From Selaginella moellendorffii (taxonomy: Eukaryota > Plantae > Lycopodiophyta): 64,000 bases of DNA. The position numbers were made by a program, and so were the translations under genes. Under the pieces are notes generated by a model, which did not search any database, had not been told where the DNA came from, and saw only the letters and a list, made by a program, of their open reading frames with translations. Where the stretch lies: positions 434,130-498,129 of the forward strand of contig NW_003314279.1 in the NCBI RefSeq assembly GCF_000143415.4. Direction: 5' to 3'. This document shows positions 1 through 48,280 of the stretch, piece by piece (position 1 is the stretch's first letter; each line of letters begins with the position of its first letter).

Positions 1-416
1 TGAGATTATCCCACTTGTAAAATAAGTTTTCCAAACCTTTATATAGTATATAAATATAACAAAATTCAACTGCATTGAGGCACATGCCATTTTATTTTAA
101 ACAAGGAAATGTCTACTCAATCACTTCTCCTCCCCCTGCCACTGCTTCACCTCTCTCTTCTCCTTGTCATCGTCGTCCAATTTCTTTTCATCCTTTTAAT
201 ATTGGCTCAGTTGCTCCGAGTCTAGGTGGAGCCCAAGTCCCCATTCAATCTTTACTTTCCCCTTATTAATAAAACAACTTCGTAGACTTCCAATAACATG
301 CTGTAACACTTCTAGTATAATGCAAATCCTCTCAAAGAATTGTCTTTTAATATTAATACAATGGCATGGAACCCCATGCCATAATAAGTTACATTTTTAA
401 ATAAATACATGCCATC

Positions 417-3400
417 TCAGACTGTTATTTTTTGCCTCCAACGCCTATACAATAATCTTGGAATTTCATCACTCTCCACAGTATCAGGATTTAAACCCAA
501 TAGTAATGCCATCTCTTCTCTAATACGTCCACGCTCATGTTCAGTGGTCGAAGAACCCATCCGGTTGAGCAGATTATGGAGATGCGGATAGTGCTTGGCT
601 AGACAATATACATGCCATAAATGATGACTGGTGTCTGTCCGATCAAATGGCTTCTGATATACCATTCCATCTGCCATTTGGTTGATTTCTGCAGCCACCT
701 CCTGGACTGGCCGGTTCTCTATCACCATCGCTTCAAGCCGTTTTGCAAGGTCCCCCAGAACATACGGTTTCTTCTCCCTAGTTTCCATACTGCAAGAGAT
801 GGGGTGCACTGCATATGTGTGCGTGTTCGCTGCAGTTTTAATCGGCGAGTCATCGATGATGAGGATTTCACTTGACCTAGCAGTCCGGTTCATCACTACA
901 GCCTCTGCCTTGACGAAGATGGGCTTGCTACCCCTCACATGGACCATAGTCAAGCAATCCTCCTGCGTTAGGAGAAAGTCAAATGGTAATATTACTCGCG
1001 TCTGATCGTGCATCATCTGTAGCAACGTTAATGCATTGTGGCGCATCATGGATGTCCAAACTCCCAATTGCAAATTGAACCCGGCCCTCTGTTTTAAGTG
1101 TCGCATGGTCATTATTAGATCCCATAGTTTCTCCCGTGTGATTAATGTGAATCTGTCTCTTTTGACCAACTTGCGACCGCAGGTTTTGGAGGGTGCAGTG
1201 ACATTCGAGGACGAGCCACGCTCATGGGAGAAAAGGACACCGTTCAGATCAAAAACGATACAGTACTTTCGCTGTGACTCTGAAATGAAATGCGTCAGCA
1301 TAAAAAATGGTACAAGTCAATTTTACCATCTACAATATTAGCGAATGGTGCTCCCGATGGTCGTTGAGAGGGTTTTGGTCGAGGAAACGTGAAGGGCGGA
1401 AATACTCTCCTCTGCAATGTGGGGTCAATCGCATCCGATGGCGTGTGGGCACATGCCATTTCAGCTGTAGACTCTGGTACAACTGGCTCAACAGTGGCAT
1501 GGGGTGGTTCCAATGGCGTGTGATCACACGCCATTTCAGCTGGTGCCTCCGTTGGCAAAGTGGACATGACCGAACAGGCAGCAGGGGCGGTGTAGGGAGG
1601 TTCCAACGGCGCGTAGTCAGACGATTGGGCACACGTTGAGTCCATTGGAAATGAGGATACGACCGGCTCGGCGGCTGGGGCGGCCTCATGCGGGTCCAAT
1701 GGCGCCTGGTCACCGTCAGTTGGATACGTGGACAAGATTGACTCAGTGGTATGGGCAGCATCAAGTGGAGCGTGGTCAGCTTGCTTGGCGTTGATATGGA
1801 TAGTAGCCTCCACCAGCTCTGATGACTCTTGCAGGCAAGTAGAGTCCACTGGCGGATCCATATGCATGTCCAAATATCTCCCTTCAATTGAGATGGTATC
1901 CTCCCGTGCTACTAAAAACAAACTCATTAGCACATTGAATCGACTATACTGTATTTACCATCAACTGCTATTGAGGAACTAGGACCGATATCACTTGGGC
2001 GCATTGCTGATTCTGAAGGATTGGACATACGTTTCGACCCTTGCTTGGCACTATCCTTCCTCGACACTAAAGGCTAGAGTTTGTATCTTAATTCAACTGA
2101 ATAATCTCTACTTACCATTTCTTCTGCGACCTACATGGACAATGTTAGAAATGGTAAAAGGTTAGGAATGGATGTACTATTATTTACCTGATGGTTTGTC
2201 TTGTATGACCTTCCTCCGCTGCTCTTTGGCCACCTCAGGCTGGCCATCGTCGTCATCATCGTCATTGTCGTTATTGTGATCGTCACCATTGTGAGGACCA
2301 TCTAAGTCCTCTTCGTCCTCCTCTTCTTCGTCCTCCTCTTCTTTGTCCTCCTCTTCGTCCTTCTGCTCTTCGTGCTCATTATCTTTCTCTGGCTCCTCAT
2401 CCCCCTCTTGCATTTCTTCCATAGGCTGCTCAGGCTGGATGGCTTGTTTTTCCAGGACCATCTTGGGAAAATCATCTGGCCGAGTCTCCATCTCAAAATA
2501 CAAGACATCCATAGCCTGTTTTAGTGCTTGACCTAGGACTATATCCTCACCCGACTGTCTTAACATGGTTTTTGCACGTTCTTGCACCCTTCGAAGACGA
2601 CGAGATGAGAAAAATGTGGCCCTGACTTGAAAAGCATCCCTCATCCATTGTACCTCTCCATTGAGATTGGGGAAGGGGAGTCCGCCATAGGAATCTGAGT
2701 CAGAAGGTGGTGACTGGCTCCTTTCACTCAGCCCTTGATCTGCAATGAATGGCATGAGCACACACGCCATAACCGCGAGGCATTACCTATCATCTTTTCG
2801 TTGCCCTTCTTCCTTTTCGAATCAAACGCCTCTGATCCCGACGACTGTCCAACGTGCTTTCGCTTTTTATGACCACTGTCAGTTTGAGCTTGGCTGGTGC
2901 TTGCCTGTTTTGCCTTTGAAGAAGTGTCTCCTGCAAGGAATGGCATGAGACCACACGCCATTGCAAATATAATTTGTACCTCCTTTTTTCCTATTGCTTG
3001 TCTGTTTGTCCTTCTTCGACGCGCCACCAGTGTGCTTTTCAGTCCTCGTGTCTGAATATTCACAACGATCTATAATCAAAATGGCGTGAGGCCTCACGTG
3101 ACCTTACCTTGTGCAGGTTGTGAGCTCGGCCTAACATCAGTAGCTGTTAACGCCGTTTCAACATTTGGGGGTGGCCACGCTCCTGCATACAGAGCTTGTG
3201 AGATAACATTTAAACTTAAAGTGCGTACTCACCAGGTTCGTAGAGAAGATACTGTTTTTCTTTGGCAACTGTAATTATATGCTCCATTGAAGTCACCTCT
3301 TCAATGGAGTTTGTCACCGCAACACACGGGACACCCTTGAGTAGTGCGGCTCGAAAGAATAGTCTGCCGCAGTTGTACTCGACAACGCATTTGCCCTTGG

Positions 3401-6016
3401 AGTCACCCGCTATTGCGTTGAAGACCCAGCTGAGCATTTCCCATGCTGCACCTGGAGCTTTCTTTGGATTCGAAAGCTCCATAGCCGTCTTCAGTTCCTC
3501 AGGCACGGGTAAATTGACCTCCGTCAGATCAATTCGATCGGCTTTGTTGAACGAAGCTGGGAAGTCACTCCAGTCCCACTCTGCTGCAGGACCAATAACA
3601 AGGGCGAGTGTGAAGATGCGGACATTCGTCGGTATCTTCTTCTTAGCCATTATCCCATGGATCTCCCGCATCTCCTTGCCTTTCAACCGAGCCTTCACCT
3701 CGTTCAAGGCCTTCCAGAACTTGTGATAGGATTTGGAGTCGTAGATCATATAGTGGACTGAAGATTCCACCTCCGCAAGTCCCACCATTAAGTCAATGAT
3801 GGAGCTGACTTCGTCTGCATGAGTGATCTCCTCGTTTGTGAAGTCCATCACACAAAAGATGTTCTTGACCTGCTCATCTCCGCGGGAAACGATGCTCCTC
3901 CACCTTTGTTCCTCATCCGAATTCACGTATACCCGGTAAGGTTCTCGATAGGCCTCTGCTGCGGGGTCGAGCTGTTTCTGAAGCCGGCGGTCGACATCCC
4001 TCTTAATGAAATTTGGATACTGATCCAACTTCTCAGCTTTACTTTTTGTGGCATCCCGCAGCAGATCGATGAACTTGGGGGCCCCCTTCACGTAGTCGTC
4101 GATGTCTTCATTTGACAACTCCAGCTCTTCCATCATCTCTTGCGTGGTGTCGATGCTCACCCTCTCCACGGCCACTTGCTCGAAGATCCAATCCTTCAAT
4201 AGTGCACGAGCTCTCAGAGTCGTGCACAAGTCCTCGTATGTCACAATATGGCCGGGAGTCATTTTGGTCTTGTTGAAGACTACCTCACCACGTAGAAGAG
4301 CATTAGCCACTGTCAGAAGGTCGTCGTCATCTAGAGACCGCGAGAAACGCAAGGCGTTGAGCTTCAAATCATTGGGCTTCCGGCCGTCCTCCACACCCAT
4401 TGAGTTTAGCAACTCCCCGTCATGGTACCTCCTCAGCACATCTACCCATTTGTCAAAAACAACTTTTGTTGCGAGTAGAATGTTATGGATGCTGAGTGTG
4501 TCATTGACCCCCAGTGTTTTCGAGAGAAGACTCGAGAATTCCTGCAATGGAAATGGCGTGAGGCCACATGCTATGCCACATGCAACGAGGCTTACCTGCC
4601 AGGCGCTAGTTGCTAGTGCACGTCCTTGTCCTGGTTTTTGTGGCTTCTTCAGTTGAACCCAAAGCTTCCGTGTTCGTGCCAATGTCTCGTGCAGACCCGA
4701 TTTGTAGCACGTTTCTTGCTTGACATTCTGCGCGTGGGAGATGTATATGATAGATCGGAGGGGCGAGTTGCCTTTTATCAGGCGGACAACTCTTGTCTTG
4801 AAGACTTTCTTCACCTCCTCGCCCACCATAATATCCACAACTATCTATTGCATCGCCAAGCTAGAATGCTGCCCGGAGACGGCATAGAACCGGATGTTCT
4901 GATCGTCCAACACCTTCCTATTGATCAAGTCTGGAAACCTTGTCTCGCCCTTCATTGTTCGGTAGTAGGGGATCACGTCTGCGATGTCGGGTGTTACTGG
5001 ACTTGCCAGCATCTTCTGCTTCAGTTTCTCCACCCACTCATCAGATACTAGCCTGTGGTTGTATTTGCTTTGGATCTCGATACGGCTCACGTCGATTGTA
5101 TATACTTTGTTGGAATAGTAACAAGTACTATTATCTGCGACGATTTTTGCTGCCTCTTCTTGCTCTTTCTGCTCTTTGCGGCTCTTCTTTTTGGTGGGTG
5201 TAGTGTTCGAACCTGAGGCAATGGCATCACCGAGTAGCTTCTTTTTTGGAGCAGCAGAGTCGGACGTCGGCTTGAGCTTGACCACCCTTTTCTGCTTCGG
5301 GGTAGTTTCCAGATCGACCCCCTTCCCCTTCGCTTCGCAAACTAGAGGCACTTTCAACGGCTCAATGTTGGAATATAGTTTTTGAACATCGCCGTAGGTG
5401 AGGTCCGTTAATTCCATGTGATCTTCATAGACCCGCAGCGTCTTTGAAATTGTGGGCCTCCTGGACAACCTCTCCCTAGCTCCCTCTAGGAATTCCTCAT
5501 AGCCGCTGCCCCCCTCCGGGAAGCCGCTAGGATGTGCAATGTGGATCTTGAAGGCGGACGCTGTCTCTACCACAAGTGCCAGTCCATATTCTTGCATGGA
5601 ACTGCATGGAGTGTCTGTCACTTGGATGAGGATCCCCATGCATTCTTTTCTCCCACCATCTGTGTTGTACAGCATCAGATCCTAGCCTTCCATCCCGAAA
5701 GTCCAACTGGTGAGCTCCTCCCCCTTCTCTGCATCCACATTGACAGTGGCTGGAAGAAGAACGCAATTCCTCGCCTGTTCAGAAATGCACAACAATTAGA
5801 GCTGACAGATGAAAAGCTAGCAGCTAGAAATAACGTGAGGCCACACGCCATTCACCACTGCATCAGATGTCTTGAGGCTGCATCCTAAGATGGCGTGAGG
5901 CTACATGCCATCTGTAACCGGACTGCACTCGAGAGCCCAATCGGTGCATGCCAATGTTGCTACTGAATGGCATGTGGCCTCATGCCATTTTCTACTTGGC
6001 CTAAAAGACTTACCAT
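417..6016 (-). pseudogene. Multi-exon ~1,630-aa fusion protein: ParB/Srx-like domain, degenerate beta-class N4C/N6A methyltransferase-like region, acidic and Pro-rich linkers, FCP1/HAD phosphatase; two in-frame TAG stops (5682-5684, 4845-4847)
   Basis: Hand-checked frame-consistent GT-AG model. Exons: 6016-6014, 5774-4596, 4541-3233, 3182-3108, 3051-2980, 2930-2787, 2739-2188, 2130-2116, 2066-1959, 1911-1327, 1279-417. Motifs: IDVSRIEI..RLVSDEWVEKLKQKM..FYAVSGQHSSLA..ISHAQNVKQE (ParB-like); NPKKAP..CVVEYNCGRLFFRAALLKGVPCVAV (MTase motif I-like); VFDLNGVL / GVWTS / KPIFVK / IIDDSPIK (HAD motifs I-IV). Confidence 0.75.
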
Positions 6017-8934
6017 TTGAAGCCGAATGGAGGCCGTTACAATCGAGGCCGGACTCGCTAGCGAATGTGCACTGTGTGTGCAGCGGATCGTAGCAGCAAT
6101 GCTACTCTGCCACTTACAGTTGGAGAGTGGCACTGAAATCTCCCGGGACGCCAAGTGGGCTGCGTGTGGGTGGCGGAGTGGGCGGCGGAGTTGGCGGCGA
6201 AGTTACAAACTGGGTGTGGACGCCGATGCACACGAGCGCGATGCGAGCGCGAGTGTGATGCAAGCGCGAGTGGACGCCGATGCACACGAGAAACCTGTAG
6301 AGAAGGTAGATGAGCGCGAATGTGAGCGTGATCGCGAGTGGGAGCGCGATGCGAGCGCGAGTACGAAGCAAAATGCAAAACCTAACCTCACACGCGCGAA
6401 ATGTCACAACGGTTGGTAATCCCGTCACGTCATCATTCCTCGGACTTGGGCGCCACCATTAATTTCTGGATTGCCGCGCGCATGCAAGCACGCAAAATCC
6501 AAAAGAAATCCACAACGTCATCATTCCTCGGACTGCATGCACGCGAAATCCAAAAGAAAGATCATGATTGGGATATCATTTAATACCCTCGCTATATTTA
6601 TACCATGCATGATTGGATATTCCAAAGCATCTTGTATTTCCAAAAATGGCAGATGTTCAGCTAAATAAAGAAATTCTATCTGTTTCTATTTTTCTCTCAA
6701 ATCAATATTATAGCGTGTGGGCTCATGCAATTTTGAACCAAAAAACCCAAAAAACGTTGGACCTAAAATATTTTGAAAAAACCCAAAAAACCCTAAACAT
6801 TTTAAACCCAAAAATCCAGGCGTCCTGTGGCGTTATTCCTTGAATGGCGTGTGGGCGCATGCCATTTTCAGGGCCAAATGCTGAATGGAGAAAAATTCCC
6901 TTTCAGTGCAAATGCTGCAAGAGGCAGATGCCGAGCACAAAGGACTGTAACTACCTCACATGACACAGATAAACTTTTCTCTATTTGGCAAAGATAAACT
7001 TTATAGCGTGTGGGCTCATGCAATTTTGAACCCAAAAAATGCACCAAAAAATTCTCGGCGTCATCTGGCGTTATCTTTTGAATGGCGTGGGGCCGCATGC
7101 CATTTTCAGGGGCACATAGGAGTATATTCCTAGAATATTCTGACACGCGCGAGATTTTTTTGAGTTTTCTGGAGATCTAACTGTTAGATCGCAACTAGAT
7201 TTTACAAAATGGTATACAATGTCTTTCTTGATGACCCTGCAAAGAAGCATCTCAATCAGACACCACATGAGACCACACGAGCCTTACAATGTTTCAGGGG
7301 TATTTGCCATAGATCCGACCGTTATTTTGCTCCAAGATTTTACAGTTTGGTGTGCATTGACCTTTCCATCGACACTGCAAAGGGACATCACAATCAGATG
7401 CGGGATCACAAGAAACTAACTTCACTAACTCTGGTTTCACCAAGATCTACGTAAGGAGTTATGAAATGAAAGGACCCTCTCTATTGACATGTGTTTATGG
7501 TCCTAGGGGCATTGTGACATATCAAAGGATTTTGCATCAAGTTCTGTATTTGCATGTTTATCAAGCTACTGAATTGCTAAACCCTAAACCCTAAACCCTA
7601 AATATGTGGCAAATGCTGCGTGAAGAAAGATGCCCTTTCTGGGCAAATGCTGTAAGAGGCAGATACCGAGCAGATGTATCTCAGGCTAGCGAAGGGGACA
7701 AACGAAAGCTAGCTATAAACATGACGGGATGCAAATAGATTACTAGGCTGGTCCTACGAAAATCAAAAACCATAATTGAAAACATTGAAAATGCAAAAAA
7801 AAAGGTTTATAATATTTTTGAATTTTAAGCAACCAAAGGAATGTAAGTAGGGCATATGTTTGTAAGTTTAAAAATGCCTCAACCACTTAAATTCCCAAGT
7901 AAATAAAGTTGTTTCTATTTTTGGTACAGGTAAACTTTATAGCGTGTGGGCTCATGCAATTTTGAACCAAAAAATGCACCAAAAAATGCTCGACTAGCAT
8001 TATTCTTTGAATGGCGTGTGGCCTTATGTCGAGCATTATTCTTTGAATGGCGTGTCTTTTTTATATTGCCATAAATGGACGTACACACACAGCATAATTA
8101 TTCCTTTACACGGCGAATAATCTTGGCGCGGATCGCTGACATGGCATGGCAAAGTTCGAATCACTGACATGGCACAGCTGGATCGAGGCAAGGACATGAT
8201 GTGACAAAGTTCAACCTCCGACAGCAAAGTCTAGAAGCTACTCAGTTTGAAATTTGTCAGAGGAATCATAAGATCTGGTTTGTCAGAGGATTTGATGTGA
8301 CGTTTAAACGTGTGTTATTTTTGAATTCTCGAACTCATTCCTAGGTCTATCATTTTTGTGCGCCGTGTTCTTGGTTCCGCTGAGCGCAGTGAGTGCTGCT
8401 TGTGTAAGCGGCGTTGTGGGCTGTGGTTTATGCGTCTACGAGCGGTTGCGGCATTGCGAGCGCCATTGCGAGCGGCAGTTTATGCGAGTGGCAGTTTGTG
8501 CGAGCGGCACTACGAGCAGTTGCGGTGTTGCGAGCGGCGCTACGAGTAGTTGCGGTGTTGCGAGCGGCACTGTCTTTGGTGTGGCTACCGCTTCCTCTTG
8601 ATATTCGGCACTTGTGCTTCCTGGTATGTTCACCATGGAATGGCTTAGGACCACATTTAGAAATGGCATGAGGCCACATGCCATCTTGGGCCCTTGCAAT
8701 TTCATGGCTAGCGTATTGTCATGTATGTTTTTACTTGCCTACAGCTGTGTGTATATCAAGATGGCATGAGGCCTCATGCCAATTTTGTGAATGCGAAATT
8801 TCACGTGGGTGTCAATAGCATGTTTGAATAATGGCATGTGGCCTCATGCTATTGAGGTTGTTTGGTATGTTATGATTTAGGCCATTCTCCAATCATTTTT
8901 TGTATGGTCTTAACTTCTTTTCTGCACTTTCAGA
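6017..8934. promoter_or_regulatory. Divergent control region between the two element genes, including a probable 5'-UTR intron of the transposase gene
   Basis: GC-rich repeated segments next to each gene (GTGGACGCCGATGCACACGAG at ~6216 and ~6270; 30-bp tandem unit at 8501-8570). A triplicated block TTATAGCGTGTGGGCTCATGCAATTTTGAACC occurs at ~6708, ~7000 and ~7937. A TTTCAG acceptor lies just before the ATG at 8935. Confidence 0.5.
7577..7602 (+). repeat. Interstitial plant telomere-type repeat (CCCTAAA)n, ~3.7 units / telo-box cluster
   Basis: CTAAACCCTAAACCCTAAACCCTAAA read directly from the sequence. Confidence 0.85.
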
Positions 8935-11900
8935 ATGGCCTTCAGGGTTGGGGAAAAGGTTTACATTTTGAATGGTGGGAAGAGAGTTGCAAAAGGGACC
9001 CTTGTGTCTATGGATCGGAACTTTGTTATACACTGTCAAAGGCTTGGGGAAGGCAATGCTGCTGTATCAATAGAGACTGTCTTCGATGGGAATGTGGTCG
9101 CTATTGAACGAGGAGAGATGGTCGTCGGGGTAAATGTTGTTGTTGCCTTGAAAAATCTTCAGAAGAAAGCAGATGTTGGGGACAGCGCAAGTGCGACGCA
9201 TGTTCCCTCCGTGGATCTTAAGAACCGTGCTACATGGATTCAGGCAAAGGTGTTTCTAAACAACCCCGAGGGGGAGGTGGTAGCTGAGGGCTTAGCCACA
9301 GTTGTCGATCCAAGAGATGCGGTTGCTAATCAAGAATTGGGCTGGGATGATATTGGAGTTGCGATTTTAGAGGTTGTTGACACAGAAGAAAACAGTCTGA
9401 CTATTGGAAGCATTGTGCGGTGGAAATTGAGGCACTTAGTGTTTGAGAATGTAAAGGATTCACAATCAAACACCACTACAACTGATGACAGAACATCTCT
9501 TCATGGGAAAAGAAAGTACACCTTCCTAAAGCGCAGCCAAAGGGATCTGAGCAACGAACCGAAAAGGCAGAAAATGGCGATGGAGGTTCGAATGGTCTCG
9601 ACAGTTGCTTGTTGCAAGAGGAGGTGCTGTCAACATGCTGATTGGGATGCTATTGAAGAGGAGAGAGCAAGATACAAGACATTGTCCTGGAAGGCAACTC
9701 GCAATTTTGTGTATGAGGCATTACGGTCATCTGTTGATGCTTCAGAACATCAGGTGGGGGGCATGGTCTTCCAGAGGGGTTTGGTCTGCATGAAGGCATG
9801 GAGAATCATTTATGGAGTCCCTCGAACCACATTCTACAGAATCAAAACTGAGTTCGAGGAACAAAGGGTTCAACAGGCAGTCCATGGGAACGACGGTACG
9901 CACAAAACCAGGGGTCATGTTGTATATGGAGAGGCAATCTTCAAGAGGTTTGTCGAGACATGTAGCGAGCAGCAACCACATAAAACCCGCCTCTTGGAAG
10001 ATGGAACACGAGACACCCAACGAGTTCTCCCTTCCATGTATACCAAGGGGGCCATATTGGAAGATGTGAATCGGGAACTCCAGAGTAATGGCTACAGGAA
10101 GTTGAGCCAATCTAGATTTAGTAGATTGTGGAGCAACAGGTTCAGGGATGTGAGTATAGGAAAGTACTCCAGCTTTTCAAAGTGTGACGAGTGCACTGCT
10201 ATCAAAATGGCTTTGTCGAAGAATTCTTGCAGCGCTCAAGAGCGAGAGACGTTGGTTAGAAGGCGGCTCGACCACAACATCGAGTAGAGAAGCTGCAGGA
10301 CTGCATATTATCATAACAGGATTCTCTCCATGGAGAGACCTGACTCTTACCTCTGCATCATCCACGACAAAATGGACCAGAAAAAGACGTGCTTACCTCG
10401 ACTCAATCCTGCCCCCAAGGCAATATCTTCATCCATGCAGCTGCCTGTGTCTCTGTTTGGCATAATCGCTCATGGGCATGGTGCCCAGAACTATGGGAAC
10501 TTCTTTGTACCTCTATGGGGTGGCGGGGGTGCAAACATGATGATTGCGTCCCTAGCAAAACACTTAAGGTCTCTGCAAAGTGCGCAGACTGAGCTGAACG
10601 GCCAACCCTTGCATAAGGCCCTTGTCGATCGAACCCCATACAGGGTTCAGCTGGAGGAGGAGCAAAGGCTTGCAATATCGTGTGGGGCCCCATGCCATCC
10701 CAGTGAATATGTTGGCCGTCAGATTGTAGGGTTATCACGTGAGGCCTCATGCCATTCCGACGAGGCTTGTCGCCCGGTGAATGCACAGCCTCATCCAAAC
10801 GAAGCAAAATCTCAAGGAAGTTCTTGCGGCCGATGTGGCCTTCCACCCCATCTTCTGCTCCAAACAGACAATGCTGGCAGTGAGAACAAAAACATGTACG
10901 TCTTCGCGTACTTGGCGATGCTTGTTGCCAAAGGCATATTTGAAACGGTTACACTTGGCTTTCTCATGGTTGGGCACACTCATGAAGACGTCGATGCCAT
11001 GTTCAGTCACCTGGCAGAGTCCCTCCGGCGATCCAATGTCCTCACCCTCCCACAACTCTACGATGAATTCCAAAATTGCATCAAAGGCACTGTTGAAGCT
11101 GCACTTCTGACAGAGGTTCCAGACTTTAAGGGGTTTGTAAGAGGCTACATCAGGGACGGATCCGAAACGCTGATTGGCCACTCCAAGCCTCTTCAGTTTC
11201 ATTTCAGCATGTGTGACAGTGCTCCAGTGATGAGGTACAAGATGAGAGAATGGGACACAGTGTGGTTGCCAGTGGACGGCATTGAACTCTTCAAGAGAGA
11301 TCCCATAACTGGGGAACCTATGATTCCTCAGGGTTCCCCACAGCCGATGCACCCGGATGGACTCAAAGACCAGGAAAGTATAGTGGCCGGGATTAGACAG
11401 CATATTGCCTTCTAGAAGAGGGGGTTGGTGTTTGGTGGAGAATCCTATTTTCAGAGGTGCAAGCCTTTGCTCGAATACTGGGAGAAGATTATATCTGCTA
11501 TCCAAAATGGGCCGGTTGTATATGAAGAATTGGAAGAGTCCTTTTGGCCAGAACCCAGAGCACCAGATAGTAGCGGAACAATGTCCTCTGGAAATGCAGT
11601 GACAGATAACGATGTTGAGGATCACTATTGTGGGCCGAGGAACAAGAAGCCGGATTCAGCATTCAATCCAGTACAGGTCTGCAAAGGAATGGTCGTGCTT
11701 GTCAGACCCAGTAATAAAAAACAAATGATATGGGTGGGGCGCTGCATCACTGATGCAGAGGAGGACGCGGAAACTAACTCCTTCAATGTAACTGTGGAGT
11801 GGTTCAAGCCAAGTTCCGGATATACGAAGGATTGCCTAGAAAAGAGATGGGTGCTGAATCCAAGGGATCCCAGCATGAGCATATCGGTGGATAATGTTGT

Positions 11901-12076
11901 GCATGGTTGGATGCGGAAGCAGAGTGCCACCATCACCTTGCCAGACCATGCAAGAGATGCAGCAAGAGCATTCATAACCCGGGTTCAAGGTGAGATTCAT
12001 TAATATTCCTTTACTAAGTTTCTAATGTATTTTATTTCAAGGTGAACAATCCGAATCTGAATCAGAGGAGGCATGA
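8935..12076 (+). pseudogene. DDD/E-type transposase-like protein (Sola1/DUF7869-like core) with two N-terminal Tnp1/En/Spm-like repeats and a C-terminal SH3/BAH-like region; two in-frame TAG stops (10285, 11413)
   Basis: ORFs 8935-10287, 10330-11415 and 11425-12003 share one frame. Motifs: CCKRRCCQH, VCMKAWRIIYG, FSKCDEC, IIHDKMDQKKT, LQTDNAGSENKN, FLMVGHTHEDVDAMFS. Probable last intron 11990-12041 with a short terminal exon ending at TGA 12074-12076. Confidence 0.75.
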
Positions 12077-12716
12077 TGGCATGTGGCCTTACGCCATTCC
12101 TAGGTGAGATGATACAAATAACAACTATAAATTCTTAGTTGTTCTAGCAAATCTTACTTAAAGTTCAAGGTGAACAAGCCAAATATGAATTCATCGGATT
12201 GTTATAACAAATTGCGAGGTGATGGCATGAGGCGATACGCCATTTGAGAGTGGTAGCCATTCCTATATGAGGTGAGTGAAATGTTTATTAGAAATACCTC
12301 ATTCAATTGTGCACTTTTAAGTCTTGGTCCACTCAGTACTGTTTGCATGTTTCTATTTTAATTCTTTCTCTAAAATGTTATTTAGCATGTGGCTTCATGC
12401 CATTGCTCTCCACAATCATGCATTGAATTTTTCTATCCTTGCATAATACTTCTCCATATATATAACATGTGCGCACATGTGATATGGTTCATTAGGCCTG
12501 ATATAATGTGTGAGGTAAAACAAAGATGATGTGACATATGCATTTACCAATCACACGTGCATAAATCTAATAATATGGCGTGTGGCCCATATTAATGGCA
12601 CATAAACCCATATTGTGGGCTTACGTGCTTTATGTACCATCATTCCCTTGCAGCGTGTGTGTTGGTTTCCTTTTATAACACAACGAACTCCATATTTTAG
12701 GGTGAAGAGCGTTCAC

Positions 12717-12974
12717 ATGGCAAGCACAAAATCTGTAAGTGAGGCAGAAAAGGAGACGGAGAAGGAGATAGGTGAAGATGTAGAATATATAAGTCTTCCA
12801 AACTCCCCGTACTATACTCCAAGTGATCATTTTTCTGAACAAACGGCAACATTAACAACTATCGAGAACGCCCCAGTAACGTCAGAGACAACAATCCAAA
12901 GCAAAACAACTGACCCGGAGAAGGATGATAGTACCGCTGAGAGTACCAAAAAGGAGGTGTCCACTAGCGCTTAG
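12717..12974 (+). CDS. Small acidic Ser/Thr-rich ORF or exon inside the element, function unknown
   Basis: Open frame MASTKSVSEAEKETEKEIG...; preceded by a TTTTAG acceptor near 12700 and flanked by palindrome copies at 12575 and 12982. No recognisable domain. Confidence 0.3.
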   Translation: MASTKSVSEAEKETEKEIGEDVEYISLPNSPYYTPSDHFSEQTATLTTIENAPVTSETTIQSKTTDPEKDDSTAESTKKEVSTSA

Positions 12975-13632
12975 GCTTATAATGGCGTGTGCCCTCATGC
13001 CATTTACTTGATCACCAAATACCTTTTTCCCTTTGCACTAGTATATCTTAATACCGGTCTGAGAAATAGAATGGCATGTGCCCTCAGGCCTTTTACTAAA
13101 TCACCTTTGAAAGAAATGCAAGCCTCTATGTCGCAAAAAAAAGGTACTAGAGAAATTCCTTAATAATATGAATGTTATTTAGTTTCATGAAAATACACTA
13201 AGGGTCAAATGAGTTAAATGACTTCTCCAGACTAGCAATGCCTCTTGCTACACCTTCACAATTAGATTCGTTAGAAAAAGATAACATTGAATAATATCTA
13301 AATGTTCTCACCATTAAGTTGTATGTCTGGCTAATAGGAATGACGTTCATCTTGGAAAGCTCACCACACGCTCAATGAACAAACAAATAGTGTGTGCGCG
13401 CATGCCATCGCTCTTCTTTAGCTTCAGATTCGGCTTGTTCACCTTGACAATGAGATTTATTATACAACCAGATGGACTCAGTCTGGACATAAAGTCACCG
13501 CGCTAGTCACCATGCCCCAGATATGTCTAGCCCCTGGACAAAAAACATATAATTTCACGTCATTTTCAAATACTTGAAAATTTGTACCTAGTCCCATTTT
13601 ACTGAATAAATCCCACTTTAACGAAATAGAGC

Positions 13633-16600
13633 ATGGGAGTGGAACTCCCAACCGAGTGCTCAAGGAACGAGCATGAAGCGAGCAATAAGCGAGGCTAAAA
13701 AAAGGGACCCAAAAGGACTAACACATGACACGTGGGAGTGTCCGAGATGGAGTCTGAGTTGGAGTCCAAGATGGAGTCCGAGATGGACCCGAGTTGGAGT
13801 CTGAGGTGGAGTCCGAGATGGAGTCCGAGATGGACCCAAGATGGAGTCCAAGATGGAGTCCGAGATGGAGTCTGAGATGGACCCGAGATGGAGTCCGAGA
13901 TGGATCGAGACGGAGTCCGAGATGGAGTCCGAGATGAACCCGAGATGGAGTCCGAGATGGACCAAGACGGAGTCCGAGATGGAGTCCGAGATGGAGTCTG
14001 AGATGGAGTCCGAGATAGAGTCCGAGATGGACCCGATATGGAGTCTAAGATGGAGTCCGAGATGGACCGAGACGGAGTCCGAGATGGAGTCCGAGATGGA
14101 CCAAGACGGAGTCCGAGATGGACCCGAGATGGAATCCGAGATGGAGTCCGAGAAGGACCCAAGATGGAGTCCAAGGTCAAGACCGAGACCGGGACTGAGA
14201 CCGAGACTGGGACCGAGACCGAGACCGAGACCGGGACCAGGACCGGGACCGAGACCGAGGCCGAGGCCGAGACCGAGCCCGAGTCTGAGTCCGAGTCAGA
14301 ATCCGAGTCCGAGTCCGAGTCTGAGTCCGAGTTCGAGTTCGAGTCTGAGAGGGTGAAAGCCCAAAGCGTTCGTCTCCTAGACCCTAGGGGGTTTGGTGAG
14401 CTCCAAAAGTATAGTAAGGGGGAGGATTGCAGTGGAGTCAGTTTGGCCAGGGAAGGCCAGACCCAGTGTTGGGTGAGGAACTGACCACTGGGAAGTCCAA
14501 GACTAGAGTGAATACGGACCGATAAGCAGGGTAGCTTGGTGAAGTGTTCAAGAGCCGGCTCTAGTTCCCCCGGGAGATCGACTGGCCGATGCTCCCAGTT
14601 CATGAGTGGGTGGCACTACCTACTTGGATACCTAGCATGGCTCAACGGAACCTCGCTCTAAGCCCATGGCTAGAGCACCTAAAGGCGGAAGGTGGGGAGA
14701 GTACCCACGGGGCTCGTGTAGGGCCATGGTGTTCCGAAATGTTGTCCCAAAGTCCCAAACTGGGGAAAGGAGAAGGAGCAGTCTTCTAGTGTAGTGACTA
14801 AGGATATGGTCACATGGTGAGGAAGTCCCCGAGGACAATGGGACTTAGTGGCCGGGCCTATGGGCCTTGATCTAGTTGCAGTATTGGCAAATATAGCCAT
14901 GGACAGAAAAAGGACTTGGTAGGAACTGAAAAAGGGATATTAGGGAAGGGTATTCCCCATGTCTGTGGGCATCCTAAGGATGCTAAGGAGTGGATCTAGG
15001 ATGACCACTCGTGGACGGATGGCCTAGTCTTGGAGAGACGGGACTGTGATGCAAGTGGTATTGAACCACCAGTGTGGCAAAGGTGAATGGGCATGGCCTT
15101 AGTGTAACAGGCCGATATGTTAATGGTACCTTTGGTTGTCAGTCATGGGACCGGACACGTGGAGCACTTGGACCAAGTGCAACGGTTGAGTGGCACGGAT
15201 GCCATTCTTGGGGCTAGCAAGTCCCCAAGTCCGGAATAAAACTTATAGAGGTTGTGAGTGAGACTCCTCCAAGTGGTCGGAGGTGTGGTTAAGTGACTAA
15301 AGTAGAATGGAAAAATTAGTCGCTTACAACTTGGTATCGGAGCTGTTCCTTACTCCGACTCTTATTAGTAGCCAAGTATATCACCACTTGTATTGGAATT
15401 GGAAGGTCCTAGATATGGACCTATCCTCAAGGAGTAGCATGTCGAGAGGACATGGCTCTCCGCTTAAGTTCATGTGTGAACTTGTGCGCGATGTGGTGGA
15501 TGGAAAAGGGCCAGTAAGGGAACGACTTTGGGATCTTGGGAACGGTATAAGGTTTCCCTCAAAGAGTTAAGGATGTGATCCGGATGAGCGTTTGACTCAG
15601 CTAACTAGCTAAGGTAGTTATGGTAAACAACTATAGTTGGGATCACAGGAAAGATGCAAACTCCAAAACAATAAAGGAGTCACAAGATAATCCGCACATA
15701 GTTGAGGCTGGTGCTCATGAATTTGAGACCGGAATTGATGATCATGAGAGGTCAAGTACGGATGAGGGCAAGAGCCCTCGAAATGGTAGCTAGGGCTACC
15801 TTTTATAAATGCTGGAACAAACCCAAGGAGTTGGGGGTATGCTCAAAGGATGAGTCGGCATTCTCATCATAGGGACGGATAGTCCTAAGGGGCAAAGGCA
15901 GCCCACAGAGAACGGGAAATAATGAAGTGTTGGAATAACACTTGCAAGATGGTCCTTATGAGTAGGACATGAATACATGAAGTTGTATTCAAGTGAGCTG
16001 GCACCTCAAAAATAGGACCTTATGGGTTGTTGGTTTAGCGAAGTCCAAAAATGTTGGATGACTCAAGTGGGGTCAGGGAATGGTCCTAAGGGATTAGTTA
16101 AAGCATTTAGACTGAGGTGTATAATGCCCCATGAGTATTGGGAGGATTATAAGATCCAAGTATGAGAACAGGAGATATCTCATTGATGGCAGAATGTGCC
16201 ATACTAAAGTTGTGGGAAAGATGTTCCCAGAAGAAAGCAACTTTAGCCCAGAGTTGGGGACAAACATTATGGTGCAGTGCTAATGGATAGTTAGCAGGAG
16301 GCACAACTATATTGGTCTTGGCAAAGACCTAGACACTAATAAGTAGTGTTATAAGGATAGGCTCATAGGGCGAATGGTGTGGAGACACCAAATGTGCCAA
16401 GGTGTGATACCTTGAAGTTATGTTGATGGGTTCATAAGAACCCCTTGCCAAGAGAATCCCAACGGAAATGGGAATGGCATAATCTAAGCTGGAAGGCATG
16501 TGGTAGAGTGTGGTGACCAAAACAATGATGGAGGTGTGGAAGCACCAACAATGAGTTGTAGGACTTGATAACTATGAGGCAACTAAGCAAAAGGTGCAAG

Positions 16601-19432
16601 ATAATTGGTTAAACTGGTAGAAGGTAACTACCCAAGACTTCTTAATGGCATAAGGAAGTTAGATATACCCTTACGAGGGATAAATTGCTTATGTTGCGAT
16701 ATAGTAAGTCAATGTCATAAAAGGGAATGCTCATTGTCAAACAGGCCATCATTTGGGACACCAAAACACTCTAGAACACCAGGAAGTGGTGTTTGATGTT
16801 GCGAGGGCAATAGATAAGGCCCAAGGGACTAAATCCCTAGTGAATGATGGATAGAAGGTGCTATCCAAATGTCCAATGTTGCGAAGACGGGAGAAGACTG
16901 TCTACCCAAATTGGATAAAACCAAAAATGGAATTTTGGAAAGGCTAGTGATAGGCATGTAAAGGCCCATAAGCAACAACTTTAATCCCAGTGTGTGGGAT
17001 TACAAGGTGAGCATACATGGATTGAAGAACCACTCCCTAGGCTATCGGGTAGGTTCATCCTAAGAATACTTGTTAAGGCATGATAGAAAGTGCAAAACTA
17101 TCCTCCTAGTCTGGAGGAGAATGACTGAAAGAAAGGTGTGAAGCCAAAAGCAAGTAGTAAGGGGATAGAACCAAACTATAGAAATCAAAGGGCATAACCA
17201 AGGGTGGTTATGCTAGTTGGGAGTGGAGAATCAAGTGGGGGCTCGAGGGTGTTGTTGCTAGCAACCGTGATGCCATGGAGAGTCTAAAATATGGAATTGT
17301 CCATACTAGACTATATGGCAACTAGAAAGCTTGCGAAAAGGGAGGTCTTAGCAAGCTAAGGGACAGAGTTCCTTTAAGGTTCCCAAAGACGATTCTAAGT
17401 AGCTTAGTACCTAGAAAGGCCAAGTGTAAATGGTTCATAGAACGCATGAAACTAGAGTGGCGCAGCAGAAGCATGGTCTTGAAGCTTGCCATGAGGCAAG
17501 GCTATCAAGGTTAGGGAAGCAATTCCCAAGTGTTCAAAGAGAGGGCTTTGAACGAAAGTCGATGGTCAAGGACTTTCACACTTATGCAGGAACCATGTTA
17601 CGGTGGTCAGAGGACTTGCCAAGCGGGATTGGCAAGTCGGGGGAACAAATACCCTAGTTGAAGGTGATAATTTTAAAAGGGTGGGCCATAGGGCCAAGCA
17701 TGGAGGAGTCCATGCATGATCACAGATGTGTCAAGTGAGAGGACTTAGTAGTGTGGAGGAACTAGGTTCCTAAGCTGTGATCTATAGCACGCTTTAAGTA
17801 TAAATTGGTGCACCGGCGTGGGGAGTCACGCCAGGCATCTAGGATGATGCCTTCTGTAGATGCATATACGGAGGTTGGGTTCGAGTCCCGACCCCCTAGT
17901 GCTTGGGTTCGAGTCCCAAATCACTAGGGCGTGGTGATGGTTTGGAATATGAGGACACCCATATTTCGGTGGTCATGGACTCTTAATGAGGAGATTGGCT
18001 TGGGCACACTGCCAAACGGGGGATGCCCCAGAGTCGTGATGCACGGTTAGATTGCTTAGAGTGAGAGTTCGGCATATCTAACTTGAACACTTTGGTGCAA
18101 AGGGCACCAAGGACGTGGTGAATGAGATGGGGACACCCAGTCTCAATTGCTATGGATCCTTGGCCGGAAGGGCTGGCTTGGGCGCACTGCCAAGTGTGGG
18201 GGATGCCCCCGGGGTCATAGTCAACAACTTAAAAGGGTTTGGAAGACCTGGTTCCTACTGGTAGACCTATTGAGGGGTCAAGATGAGATCACTAAGTGAT
18301 CTTGTGGCTAAACAAGGACAAGGTCTTTGTTTGGGTTAAGGGATATGATTCCTAGTTCAAAGTGTTGATTTGAACTATTGATAATGGTGTGGCTTGGTCA
18401 AGGTGACCAAGTAGGAAGAGCACCTATGGGAAATGAGCTATGTCACTGCTATGGCATAGTAAATCCGAGGAAAGTAGTCTCTATAAGAGATCCAAGGGAG
18501 GGTCTCAAAAGTTGGGCCATGGATAGAGCCCACAGCAGGAAATGTTAAAGAGACGTACTAGGGGTGAACACCCTCTAGACTTGGCAAAAGCAAAGTGTTT
18601 GCTATGGAACTGAAAGGAAACCTCGAAAATGGAGGTAGCAATCCTATGTTGCTGGGTGCAACAATCAAGGATAGGAGCAAAAGATTAGTGGCTAAGAAAA
18701 GAGCCATGGGAATCATGGGAAAAAATCCAAATGGCAAAGTTAGGCCGAGAACACTAATGTGTTGGGTCTTAAAGGATTGTGGGAAAGGCAATGTTTCCCC
18801 AAAGATGGATTCCCAATCGCTCCGATTTGGCGAAAGTGGATGCTCCAAAGGGGGCAGTGGTAAGGTAGCCAAATAATAGGGCCGTGGGCAGCCCTAGCAC
18901 CAATTATGATAACTGGAACTTAGTGCCAAAAGTGGCACGATATCGAAGAGAGGATGATGGTACCCTCAAGTAAAGAACTTCCTAGGATAGGGAAGTGGAG
19001 TTACACCATATGCAACGTAAGGTGTCGGAGACACCTAGGAAATTGATTCTGAGAAGTCAAAATTAAAAGTTCCAAAGTGCAAAGGTTATGTTAATGGAAT
19101 CTGAGACAACTCAAGAATGAGTAGTGGAATTGAGTTAGAGAGGGTGTCTCTTACGGGTTTAGCGAGAACTAAACCAATAAAAGGGAGCAAACCACCCCAG
19201 GTGGCCGAATGAGTCTCTATGTTGGAGAGACTATGCCCCTTAGAGGATAGACAAAGCATGGTGAGCCTTCGAGGTCAAACCATAGACAAATATTAGCTAT
19301 GTGCCAAGGATGGAAATGGTAATACCTGCGAGTGATACTTTATAAAAGAGTTTACAGTTCGATGAGGACATCGAACTTCGTCTATGGGTGGTGGAGTTGT
19401 GAGACACAAATCCCTAAGCCCCAAAGTGGAGA
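13633..19432 (+). mobile_element. Non-autonomous LTR retrotransposon (LARD-like), copy A; 5' LTR lacks its first ~125 bp and the 3' LTR is truncated after ~35 bp
   Basis: 5' LTR ends ...CGCTTACA at 15328, followed by PBS TGGTATCGGAGC (15332-15343, tRNA-Met type). ~4.1 kb internal region collinear with copy B. Purine-rich PPT ATGGGTGGTGGAGT precedes the 3' LTR start TGTGAGACAC at 19398. Confidence 0.85.
13735..14350. repeat. GAGTCC/GAGATG/GAGACC 6-12-bp minisatellite inside the LTR (also at ~20035-20470, ~40398-40715, ~46076-46610)
   Basis: Direct tandem units visible; it generates the spurious (ES)n, (RP)n and (SRTP)n ORFs in the track. Confidence 0.95.
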
Positions 19433-19807
19433 CACAAAGTTGTGAGACACAAATCCTTTGAAGACATATGGGAAACTCACTCAAATTTCGAGCATCATCC
19501 CAGGAATGATATATGGGAATCACCATAAAGTCAAATCAATGGTACACATCATCCCCAAGATTTCTACAGAAGAACTCCGGCCGGATGCGAGGATTAGTAG
19601 CAAGAGTAGGAAGAGTTGTACCACACACTGTAAATACTACTATCAATTAAGTTTAATTGTTCAATTACAACTACATAACATCGAACATTGCACCAATTAT
19701 TGCTCTAAAGTCAAAGAAGGAAGAGGCTACTACTTTGCGATGAAGATGAACAAAAAGGAAAGAGCAAAAAAGAAGAAATTGAGAAAAATAATAAGAAAAG
19801 AGATATC

Positions 19808-21471
19808 TGTGAGACACAAATCCCTAAGTCCCAAAGTGGAGCCGAAAGAGTGCCACGTGGTAGTGGCCGAAGCAAAAGCCAAACGAGTGTAACACGTTTG
19901 GACTAAAAGGCTCCAACTTGAAAGGTTGAGAGCGGGAGTGGAACTCCCAACCGAGTGCTCAAGGAACGAGCATGAAGCGAGCAATAAGCGAGGCTAAAAA
20001 AAGGGACCCAAAAGGACTAACACATGACACGTGGGAGTGTCTGAGATGGAGTCCGAGTTGGAGTCCAAGATGGAGTCCGAGATGGACCCGAGTTGGAGTC
20101 TGAGGTGGAGTCCGAGATGGAGTCCGAGATGGACCCAAGATGGAGTCCAAGATGGAGTCCGAGATGGACCCGAGATGGAGTCCGAGATGGACCGAGATGG
20201 AGTCCGAGATGGACCCGAGATGGAGTCCGAGATGGAGTCCGAGATGGACCGAGACGGAGTCCGAGATGGACCCGAGATGGAATCCGAGATGGAGTCCGAG
20301 AAGGACCCGAGATGGAGTCCGAGGTCAAGACCGAGACCGGGACTGAGACCGAGACCGGGACCAAGACCGAGACCGAGACCGAGACCGAGACTGGGACCGA
20401 GACCGAGACCGAGACCAAGTCCGAGTCCGAGTCCGAGTCCGAGTCTGAGTCCAAGTCCCAGTTCGAGTCTAAGAGGGTGAAAGCCCAAAGCGTTCATCTC
20501 CCAGACCCTTGGGGGTTTGGTGAGCTCCAAAAGTATAGTAAGGGGGAGGACTGCAATGGAGCCAGTTTGGCCAGGGAAGGCCAATTTGGCCCAAGAAGGC
20601 CAAACCTAGTGTTGGGTGAGGAACTGACCACTGGGAAGTCCAAGACTAGAGTGAATATGGACCGACAAGCAGGGTAGCTTGGTGAAGTGTTCAAGAGCCG
20701 GCTCTAGTTCCCCCTGGAGATCGACTGGCTGATGCTCCCAATTCAAGTGTGGGTGGCACTACCTACTTGGATACCTGGCGTGGCTCAACGGAACCTCGCT
20801 CTAAGCTCATGGTTAGAGCACCTAAAGGCGGAAGGTGGGGAGAGTACCCACGGGGCTCGTGTAGGGCCATGGTGTTCCGAAATGTTGTCCCAAAGTCCTA
20901 AACTGGGGAAAGTAGAAGGAGCAGTCCTCTAGTGTAGTGACTAAGGATATGGTCACATGGTGAGGAAGTCCCCGAGGACAATGGGACTTAGTGGCCAGGC
21001 CTACGGGCCTTGATCTAGTGGCAGTGTTGGCGAACATGGCCATGGACAGAAAAGGGACTTGGTAGGAACTGAAAAAGGGATATTAGGGAAGGGTATTCCC
21101 CATGTCTGTGGGCATCCTAAGGATGCTAAGGAGTGGATCTAGGATGACCACTCATGGACGGATGGCCCAGTCTTGGAGAGATGGGATTGTGATGCAAGTG
21201 GTATTGAACCACCAGTGTGGCAAAAGTGAATGGGCATGGCCTTAACGTAACAGGCCGATATGTTAATGGTACCTTTGGTTGTCGGTCATGGGACCAGACA
21301 CGTGGAGCACTTGGACCAAGTGCAACGGTTGAGTGGCACGGATGCCATTCTTGGGGCTAGCAAGTCCCCGAGTCTGGAATAAAACTTATAGAGGTTGTGA
21401 GTGAGACTCTTCCAAGTGGTCGGAGGTGTGGTTATGTGACTAAAGTAGAATGGAAAAATTAGTCGCTTATA
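19808..21471 (+). mobile_element. Solo LTR (~1.66 kb) of the same family with 5-bp TSD ATATC
   Basis: Starts TGTGAGACAC and ends AGTCGCTTATA (C>T variant of ..TTACA). ATATC at 19803-19807 and 21472-21476. No PBS follows. Confidence 0.92.
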
Positions 21472-46100: not shown

Positions 46101-46455
46101 GTCCGAAGTGGAGCCCGAGATGGAGTCCGAGGTGGACCGAGACGAAGTCCGAGATGGAGTCCGAGATGGAGTCCGAGGTGGACCAAGATGGAGTCCGAGA
46201 TGGAGTCCGAGATGAAGTCCGAGATGAAGTCCGAGGTGGACCGAGACGGAGTCCGAGATGGAGTCCGAAATGGAGTCCGAGATGGACCGAGACGGAGTCC
46301 GAGATGGGGTCCGAGACGAAGTCCGAGGTGGACCGAGACGGAGTCCGAGATGGAGTCCGAGATGGACCGAGATGGAGTCCGAGATGGAGTCCGAGATGGA
46401 CCCGAGATGGAATCCGAGATGGAGTTCGAGAAGGACCCAAGATGGAGTCCGAGGT

Positions 46456-46487
<32 letters not shown>

Positions 46488-46783
46488 GGACTGGGACCGA
46501 GACTGAGGCCGAGGCCGAGTCCGAGTCCGAGTCTGAGTCCGAGTCCGAGTCCGAGTCTGAGTTCGAGTCCGAGTCCAAGTCCAAGTCCGAGTCCGAGTTC
46601 GAGTCTGAGAAGGTGAAAGCCCAAAGCGTTCGTCTCCCAAACCCTGGGGGGTTTGGTGAGCTCCAAAAGTATAGTAAGGGGGAGGACTGCAGTGGAGCCA
46701 GTTTGGCCCAGAAAGGCCAGTTTGGCCTAGAGAGGCTGCACCCAGTGTTGGGTGATGAGCTGACCACTGGGAAGTCCAAGACT
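40170..46783 (+). mobile_element. Non-autonomous LTR retrotransposon (LARD-like), copy B; complete 5' LTR 40170-41709, 3' LTR from 45847 truncated at ~46783
   Basis: TG..CA termini; PBS TGGTATTGGAGC at 41713-41724; PPT before 45847; internal region collinear with copy A plus a ~72-bp tandem duplication at ~41862-42005. Confidence 0.88.
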
Positions 46784-48280
46784 GATGTTTTGAGCCAATG
46801 TACTCAAGTACATGCCCAGGCTGCACATCAGAAAGTGACTTCCAAGGACTAGAGATAAGGAGCGTGCTCAACCTGATCCTATCTGTTGACTCATGGATCT
46901 AGCCGTCTGGACCAGTCGCTGTCATCCCGTCTTTTTTCTAAGTGGATGATTAGAAACTGGAATAGTCAATATCACAAGCACTATTTGGGTAGAGTTAGTG
47001 AAAGTCCCCCTACGTCACCATGGCGTTTAGTTTCGGCATTCTGGCTGAGAGAAGTTCCTACAGGCCAGGGGTAAAGAGACATAGAAACCAAATCGTTTGT
47101 ACCTGTTTTTGCATGGCTAGGAATGCGGTAGTGAGATTTCTTGCGACCTTAGTGGTGGGTGTAAGCTCGTTTTGAGCTATCCCCAAACAAACACTTCATT
47201 GGCATTGCTCATTCTTGCGGTGCGCAACAAAACGGCTGTTGATCCTGGAGTGGGCAGGAAGTGTGCGTGGTTGTGCTAGCACACAGCCTTGCAGCAGCCC
47301 AAGCTTGCTCTGCTTGTGCATGCACTCCTGGAGAATGCGGCGGCAGTAGATGCAAGCAAGAAACCCTAACATTAGGGTTTTTCCCGTCGCTTCATCATAC
47401 CTTTTGGTGTGAAAAAATCTAGTGCCCACAGCCATGAAGTCAAATAGCTATAGCTTGTAATTAGGTTTGCCTATCCGTACAGCGTGTTTCTTTGCACGAG
47501 ATTTTGTGACGAATCCAAGGTTTTGTTTTTTACCATGCCACGTCTACTCATATGTCCCATTAGTTTATCCATGGGAAAATAGAGTTTTCTCTAAACAAGA
47601 TTTTCTTTAAAAATTCTTTTTTAAGAAGACCTTTTTGTGAGTTAAGCATGGGATCTGTCTTGGAATGAGAGAGTAGGACTTGTGTTGTATTTTCATTTAC
47701 TAATCAAAACACAATTGTAGTCAATGGTATGCCTACACATTTTAGTTTAGAGCGTAACCAAGGACTACATGGTAAGTTTGGGGGAACTAGTTCTTTTGTT
47801 GTTCATAGTCCAAAAAAGCATAAATATCGAATTTATTATGTTTCGATATGATGCTAAAGTGATGGATAGTATTGTCTAGAAGACAAAATCCTTGGTGCTC
47901 AGCTTGAGTTTGCTGAGTTGTCGAGCTGTGGTGGGTGATTGGCCGACTCTCTCCAGACATCAAAGAGAATATCAAGCACTGCTTGCACTGGTGTTAATGG
48001 GCTGGTCATTTGGCAGAACTGGCAATGCAGGATGAATTGAAAGCCATCCCATTAGAACACACTCACCAGAATAATGTCTAACTTATTTATTCTAGGTAGA
48101 AACATGCTTATCTTACCTATAAACCAATCTTAACAAGTAGTGACTTACTTATTAAAGTGATTCTGTTATTGACAACTATTGAGGAAGTATGATTGAAAAA
48201 ACCTTAGCAAGAGCTGCCACCATTGTAATCCAAAGATGCTCCAAGTGCGATACTACCTTGTGCCAAGTTGCTATGCTAAA

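Follow-up and report, generated by a model that had tools for sequence, protein, structure and literature searches.

What reads the long palindrome that is repeated through a transposon copy at the start of a 64-kb stretch of the Selaginella moellendorffii genome (contig NW_003314279.1; we refer to the whole stretch as the window)? The copy occupies positions 1 to 13632 and has two predicted genes, one for a transposase with a DUF7869 domain and the other for a large accessory protein; the remaining ~50 kb served as comparison DNA. We propose that the palindromes are probably cognate sites for a dimeric protein that is encoded by the element and that reads its own family's site, because the palindromes are conserved by identity, are two-fold symmetric, are placed in non-coding DNA, and turn over from lineage to lineage. 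As the reader, we favor the predicted ParB-like accessory protein, at slightly less than an even chance. Its introns and promoter region are full of palindromes, the largest palindrome arrays accompany its gene cassette, and ParB-type proteins, as far as our sources describe them, bind palindromes as dimers.

The palindrome of the original prediction, ATGGCRTG-N6-CAYGCCAT, is real. There are 11 exact matches (at 361-13003) and none in 100 dinucleotide shuffles. If up to two mismatches are allowed, there are 25 matches, as compared to a mean of 0.05 in the shuffles. A symmetrised profile gave 28 palindromes with a score of at least 14, all of them within 69-13408 of the 64 kb. The same scan found no palindrome above the shuffle level in the other 50 kb, so the density is not the same outside the element; the only further site in the window that scored at least 8 is at 17813 (8.3, while the highest score in 30 shuffles was 10.0). 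Copies do run through the whole element, as had been noted; the gaps between them range from 57 to 1846 bp with a median of 160, so they are clustered rather than even.

The refined consensus is ATGGCRTG-WGGCCW-CAYGCCAT, and the two-fold symmetry extends over 22-24 bp. The center has G/C at positions 10/13 in 51 of 56 half-sites (1.5 bits) and at positions 11/12 in 40 of 56. The arms are conserved, as originally described, and show no compensatory changes, but the spacer is not drifting: it has a palindromic consensus of its own. Among 54 half-sites that were picked blind to the two variable bases, the R/Y dinucleotide is CA in 30, CG in 21, TG in two, and CC in one. CpG decay had been offered as the cause of this variation, but simple decay is symmetric and fails to account for the excess of CA over TG (binomial p = 2.5e-7). 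The left and right R/Y positions retain a Watson-Crick pair in just 9 of 24 palindromes (Fisher p = 0.39), so the two arms vary independently. This covariation check argues for conservation of identity and not of structure.

These data also bear on whether the palindromes function through structure, either as DNA cruciforms or as RNA hairpins (splicing signals or small-RNA decoys, for example), which we consider very unlikely. The best copies do fold strongly when single-stranded (z = -4.5 for the palindrome at 5967 and -3.0 for the one at 6844), and four palindromes adjoin predicted 3' splice sites. However, for three of the four intron copies the folding z is -1.7 at best, the variable pair is mismatched in 15 of 24 palindromes, and the center, which would be the loop, is conserved.

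If the predicted gene model is correct, then 24 of the 28 palindromes are non-coding in an element that is 58% coding (p = 2.8e-6). With local duplicates (6710/7003/7939, 6844/7082, 1438/1513, and 12982/13071) collapsed, 20 of 23 are non-coding (p = 1.3e-5). Two palindromes from the profile scan (69 and 361; 69..382) are 3' (downstream) of the accessory gene. Three (5830, 5890, and 5967) are in the predicted first intron of the accessory gene (5775..6013, minus strand). Six (6710, 6844, 7003, 7082, 7939, and 8011; 6710..8032), in part local duplications, lie between the two divergent genes. Three more (8663, 8761, and 8831) are in a predicted 5' intron of the transposase gene (8624..8933, plus strand), and another six (12076, 12222, 12382, 12982, 13071, and 13387; 12076..13408) are between the transposase's stop codon and the right end. 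Of the four coding palindromes, those at 1438 and 1513 (1438..1534) are in a 75-bp in-frame duplication within a low-complexity linker of the accessory protein, and those at 10677 and 10734 (10677..10755) are in a variable insertion loop of the transposase (columns ~960-1040 of alignment A1 are gapped and unconserved). We also noticed a telomere-like (CTAAACC)3.7 tract at 7577-7602, in the element's intergenic region, and a 62-nt inverted duplication (12037-12098 and 13386-13447, 74% complementary) that spans the palindromes at 12076 and 13387.

The other four non-coding palindromes each lie in a predicted mini-intron of the accessory gene, on the minus strand: 47 nt at 2740..2786 (palindrome 2749), 49 nt at 2931..2979 (palindrome 2940), 38 nt at 3070..3107 (palindrome 3081; 56 nt if the acceptor is at 3052), and 54 nt at 4542..4595 (palindrome 4553). 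If the last of these were read in frame, it would be an insertion relative to the proteins P0096 and P0079 (alignment A2). Each mini-intron is about half palindrome, and the palindrome ends 9-11 bases ahead of the AG. In all four, the palindrome provides a branch-point-like CTCAY on the sense strand: CTCAT with the A at -16 in the first two and CTCAC with the A at -18 in the last two (in the short form of the third intron). Among the other short predicted introns, four of five have YTNAY at -15 to -17. This is suggestive of one palindrome arm doubling as the branch point, which could explain why palindromes survive in such tiny introns. As CTCAY is present on the minus strand in 10 of all 28 palindromes, finding it in four of four mini-introns is suggestive (~0.02) but is no proof.

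The mini-introns also raise the possibility that each palindrome is a tiny mobile unit or its footprint, akin to a miniature inverted-repeat transposable element (MITE) or an introner, which inserted repeatedly and at times created an intron. This would fit their composition (about half palindrome), their near-fixed distance to the AG, and the donor GTAA-GCCTCG that two of them share. But none of the 28 palindromes is flanked by a direct repeat of at least 4 bp, so the target-site duplications (TSDs) that the original prediction named as a sign of such units are absent. Also, except for the local duplications, the flanks are similar to each other only at the background level (mean 10.8/40), and confinement to one element is not what a free mobile unit would show. 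We consider this explanation extremely unlikely.

The element itself is a high-copy repeat: it is covered over 1-13.6 kb by contigs of four public runs, and one run (X1) contributes 114,689 of these. Of the 151 differences between X1 and this copy, 98 are A>G or T>C, so this copy bears C-to-T type changes relative to its relatives. Its left end is beyond the window: contigs from two other runs (X4 and X5) extend 177 and 81 letters beyond position 5. On the right, the X4 contig diverges past 13632, and the X4 sequence past this point does not occur elsewhere in the window; the X5 contig aligned to 13634; and a 5'-truncated long terminal repeat (LTR) of family D4 begins at 13635. We place the right boundary at about 13632. 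The LTR at 13635 is ~126 bases short at its 5' end, and GAGC is common to the LTR and the transposon end.

The transposase gene (8935..12003, plus strand) has 1022 codons with two in-frame TAG breaks and matches Pfam's DUF7869 (PF25273, E = 7.6e-42). We found 76 homologues (alignment A1), with conserved acidic motifs HDKMD, DN, and GHTHED. DUF7869 is linked to Sola1. The N-terminus is weakly similar to Transposase_23 (TNP1/En/Spm), with E = 0.00066 in P0006 and 0.02-0.07 in four other proteins, all below the threshold for a match; we found no Transposase_21 or Transposase_24 domain among the 14 proteins scanned.

To classify the element, we relied on the ends of its relatives. (We confirmed 478 related stretches in metagenome contigs, from 22 of the 64 parts of the collection; the best 80 were kept and bear L numbers.) The two complete relatives, L010 (11.3 kb) and L061 (5.4 kb), have terminal inverted repeats (TIRs) with AACACATATTTAATT ends that start with AACAC. 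Loci of one well-supported clade, which we call clade M, have a sharp common end. Two of four relative end pairs have a 4-bp TSD (ATAT/ATAT for L010 and TAAA/TAAA for L061), while the pairs for L026 and L031 mismatch. With these two TSDs, the Sola1 target preference of AWWT fits L010 but not L061. Sola elements are described, in the parts of the sources available to us, as having a 4-bp A/T-rich TSD and short TIRs, reaching over 15 kb, and being present in non-seed plants (PMC10741241, PMC3845634). Judged by the ends of its relatives, the element is thus tentatively Sola-like. We rejected the CACTA or En/Spm superfamily: by the accessible definition, CACTA elements have CACTA/CACTG ends and a 3-bp TSD (PMC10741241), whereas the relatives end with AACAC...GTGTT and have a 4-bp TSD.

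Do the relatives have the same palindrome? The window's motif is absent from the best 80 of the 478 related loci. Instead, several lineages have recurrent palindromes of their own, of 18-26 bp: TTTGGCCATATGGCCAAA in L001, CCACGGGTGnnCACCCGTGG in L006, TTTGGGTCGnnCGACCCAAA in L046, GGAAATCTA-N8-TAGATTTCC in L017, and ATYTRRTGGCCAYYARAT in clade M. When we compared the six motif types across 21 sequences, we found a clean diagonal with zero cross-occurrence (23 copies in the window, 5 in L001, 10 in L006, 4 in L017, 8 in L046, and 4-34 in the clade-M loci). L002-L005, L013, L042, L056, and L077 have none of the six motifs. In 31 of 42 loci, the clade-M palindrome is within -3.5/+2.5 kb of the transposase match; 41 of the 52 more distant matches are in the arrays of L010 and L059. 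Within the transposase span, all eight clade-M copies (from five of the nine loci examined) are outside of the protein matches, and in L061 and L059 these copies sit behind a GTAAG donor.

This turnover bears on whether the palindromes recruit a host transcription factor. The half-sites presumably resemble RY, G-box, or TCP elements, and the palindromes cluster between divergent genes and in first introns, as might be expected if they recruited such a factor. But the palindrome in each lineage is unrelated to the others, and the neighboring 50 kb, which includes several host genes, has no full palindrome and only 7 lone half-sites. We consider recruitment of a host factor to be very unlikely.

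The candidate reader, the accessory gene (417..6016, minus strand), is a splice prediction that we made from the DNA sequence alone; of eight splice combinations tried, four preserve the frame. It has ~1620 codons and 10 GT-AG introns, and the model is open from the ATG at 6016 to the stop at 417 except for TAG at codons 32 and 311. The predicted parts are, in order, a ParB-like region, a helical region, a degenerate N4/N6-methyltransferase-like region, an acidic linker, and a NIF-like domain. The ParB-like region (4848..5111, minus strand; motif SGQHS) aligns with the fern protein P0096 and with L059, L078, and L038. The methyltransferase-like region (3249..3950, minus strand; alignment A7) lacks the catalytic PPY motif: in place of xPPY, only an Asp is kept (DFT, DSA, DAT, or DLR). 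HPxxK-like and DxNxG-like stretches are present in P0089 and P0092 (A7). The NIF/FCP1-like phosphatase domain (420..1313, minus strand) matches PF03031 with E = 1.8e-5 and passes the cut-off.

A full HMMER scan with the accessory protein gave seven matches, of which five are credible relatives; we discarded P0080 and P0082 as chance matches because they are repetitive proteins. Two word-based protein searches gave no matches. The named relatives are from Selaginella moellendorffii and Adiantum nelumboides. In P0096, a single chain comprises a ParB-like region at the N-terminus, the helical region, and NIF; NIF is fused to the same helical region in P0085/P0096, both from ferns. The cluster of P0079 includes Selaginella moellendorffii genes with only the helical and methyltransferase-like parts, which could be a domesticated copy.

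The ParB and methyltransferase labels are leads from language models and motifs, without significant hidden Markov model (HMM) or fold matches. In Atlas, all 10 of the matches listed for 3219-4844 are to PF01555, with a best score of 0.82 (lead level). For residues 235-430 of P0096, the scores are 0.95-0.96 against DUF3723 and unnamed clusters, and 0.92 against a cluster in which 35% of the members carry ParB_N. DUF3723 is described in the available text as a conserved cargo of fungal Starships (10.1101/2021.12.13.472469). A single-sequence fold of the accessory protein had a predicted local distance difference test (pLDDT) score of 31. P0089 has no match among phages, and viral contigs contain neither a relative of the accessory protein nor an exact match to the palindrome motif.

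Among the related loci, decayed homologues of the ParB-like region are present in L059, L078, and L038, and of the helical region in L059 and L078; the middle region of L059 is similar to P0001 (pairwise E = 6.8e-6). NIF-like frames are present in L010 (E = 5.1e-6) and, by tblastn, in L078 and L059. The two largest palindrome arrays, in L010 (34 copies) and L059 (25 copies), are both in loci with cassette remnants. Searching the best 80 loci directly with the window's accessory open reading frames (ORFs) by tblastn gave nothing at E = 0.01. The NIF domains from the window and from L010 have no significant alignment to each other, and each matches the Pfam family separately. In L010, two tandem NIF-like frames (3487-5366, minus strand) sit beside a palindrome array with a 24-bp period.

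Several results weigh against the proposal that the accessory protein is the reader. The complete 5.4-kb L061, with TIRs and TSD, keeps 6 palindromes and has no cassette match; L017 has palindromes and no cassette match in the 10 kb upstream; L078 carries the cassette yet has just 5 palindromes; and of the 42 clade-M-type loci, which are mostly decayed or cut, only 4 have remnants of the cassette. We found no recurrent palindrome in L002-L005, L013, or L042, which are short and mostly coding loci. The ParB-like and methyltransferase-like parts have no match in Pfam, PHROG, NCBIfam, or PADLOC, and searches of PDB by sequence or profile (A2, A6, and A7) gave no relevant match. A fold that was predicted from nine rows has a mean pLDDT of 50; it is under 50 across the ParB and methyltransferase regions and confident only in the helical middle. 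Foldseek gave no match with E < 0.001 for this fold, and the best Z from VIA was 5.3, with no clear fold match.

The transposase is a strong rival. It might bind the palindromes itself via N-terminal repeats, much as TnpA binds the subterminal motifs of Spm, so as to build the transposition complex or to switch on its own copies; in that case, the accessory gene would be unrelated cargo or a helper. L061 and L017 keep palindromes without a detectable cassette, and the N-terminus is weakly Transposase_23-like, if below the cut-off. In L001, L006, L017, and L046, the palindromes adjoin the transposase and no cassette is seen. There are also precedents (10.64898/2026.08.24.746577): for AtMu1, the transposase by itself is enough to activate cognate copies, and the clustered motifs that TnpA binds are specific to its family. 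On the other hand, TnpA and AtMu1 bind termini, according to the same text, while most palindromes here are 1-7 kb inside the element, in the accessory gene's introns and in intergenic DNA. Short elements can be deletion derivatives that are served in trans, and the contigs for L001, L006, and L046 are so short that a cassette could lie beyond them. We consider it possible but doubtful that the transposase is the reader.

If the accessory protein is the reader, then it might coat the element's non-coding DNA, so that the element stays active and is marked as "self." Each lineage's protein would read its own palindrome, and site and reader would change together, so that a family addresses only its own copies. 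The ParB-like N-terminal part and the helical domain might do the reading. The methyltransferase-like and NIF-like parts, which both lack the usual catalytic motifs, could serve as readers or scaffolds, either opposing silencing or helping transcription. That the purpose is anti-silencing or self-activation is suggested by analogy with VANC and with TnpA/AtMu1. A methylated CG would offer the same methyl group as CA/TG, so tolerance of both CA and CG might allow a methylated copy to still be recognized. A more elaborate scenario, which is rather speculative, is a parS/ParB-type system in the Sola-like transposons of land plants: a ParB-fold dimer would load at dozens of lineage-specific palindromes and spread along the element together with a dead methylase reader and a module like the phosphatase of the RNA polymerase II C-terminal domain (CTD). 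This would sustain transcription of the element or hold its ends together, and the sites in mini-introns would double as branch points.

By analogy, the Plavaka cassette of red algae is the closest precedent. As described in the available text, these large EnSpm transposons have a ParB-like gene (among PAG2 and PAG3) beside inverted-repeat arrays that are proposed as binding sites, along with an N6-methylase-like gene (10.1101/2025.02.11.637652). There, however, tandem repeat arrays are next to PAG3, whereas here the palindromes are distributed over the whole element, introns included. Also, the Plavaka proteins are fusions of ParB-like with 2-oxoglutarate (2OG) oxygenase and of methylase with SET, whereas a single predicted chain here has ParB-like, methylase-like, and NIF-like parts, and the transposase here is of the DUF7869 type.

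VANC, from the Mutator-like VANDAL elements of Arabidopsis, binds motifs that are specific to each family and lie in introns and in intergenic DNA (PMC5735166). In the parts of the VANC papers available to us (PMC5735166, PMC10398659), the short motifs differ between related elements, are concentrated in non-coding DNA (introns, intergenic DNA, and termini), and occur beside an accessory gene, as in our element. But VANC motifs are 8-9 bp and in tandem repeats, while those in our family are 18-26-bp palindromes that are mostly dispersed in this copy, and "palindrom" occurs 0 times in the accessible text of PMC5735166. VANDAL elements have a Mutator transposase rather than DUF7869, and the accessory ORFs here match only NIF in Pfam, with no sign of kinship to VANC.

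En/Spm TnpA also reads clustered family-specific motifs of its own element, and the weak similarity to Transposase_23 recalls it, but the TnpA motifs that are described in the available text are terminal and asymmetric (CCVTCGCAAA; 10.64898/2026.08.24.746577). Sola elements share short TIRs with our relatives, and a 4-bp TSD with two of the four end pairs, but the accessible parts of the Sola sources mention neither an accessory cassette nor internal palindromes (PMC10741241, PMC3845634). For DNA methylases, Marchantia DN4MT1 (MpDN4MT1) retains a TSPPY motif (10.1101/2021.02.12.428880), unlike the accessory protein. The available portion of a review of eukaryotic N6A methylases has ParB-linked forms but none in DNA transposons of land plants (PMC4738411).

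Bacterial ParB/parS, as far as our sources cover it, is similar in combining repeated palindromes with a ParB-like domain on one element, but its sites are 16 bp instead of 22-24 bp, and we see no ParA-like gene here. The arginine motif of the ParB CTPase is GxxR, and in this place the accessory proteins have SGQHS, SGLHS, or GGQHT (A6).

We found no earlier account of the palindromes or the cassette of this element family in the literature; Repbase and closed supplements were outside our scope and may describe them. Few transposon-encoded systems for sequence-specific self-recognition have been tested (VANC, TnpA, and AtMu1). If our proposal is correct, then such systems reach non-seed plants and another superfamily. 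The family offers six natural site variants, a candidate reader that is conserved across distant plant lineages, and long palindromes that are easy to use in binding assays. It would also be a test of the idea that ParB acts on inverted repeats, which has so far been only proposed, for red-algal Plavaka elements. Orthogonal pairs of sites and readers could serve as tools for targeting chromatin.

The rest of the window has copies of an LTR retroelement family at 13635-21468 and 40170-46900, whose LTR contains GAGTCCGAGATG/GAGTCC tandem arrays. By eye, a 644-amino-acid frame at 28825-30759 (plus strand) resembles the largest subunit of plant RNA polymerase IV/V, and a 552-amino-acid frame at 52296-53954 (plus strand) is PPR-like. 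Inverted repeat arms at 55743-55978 and 63725-63959, ~7.8 kb apart and 71-84% complementary, are possibly the ends of another element.

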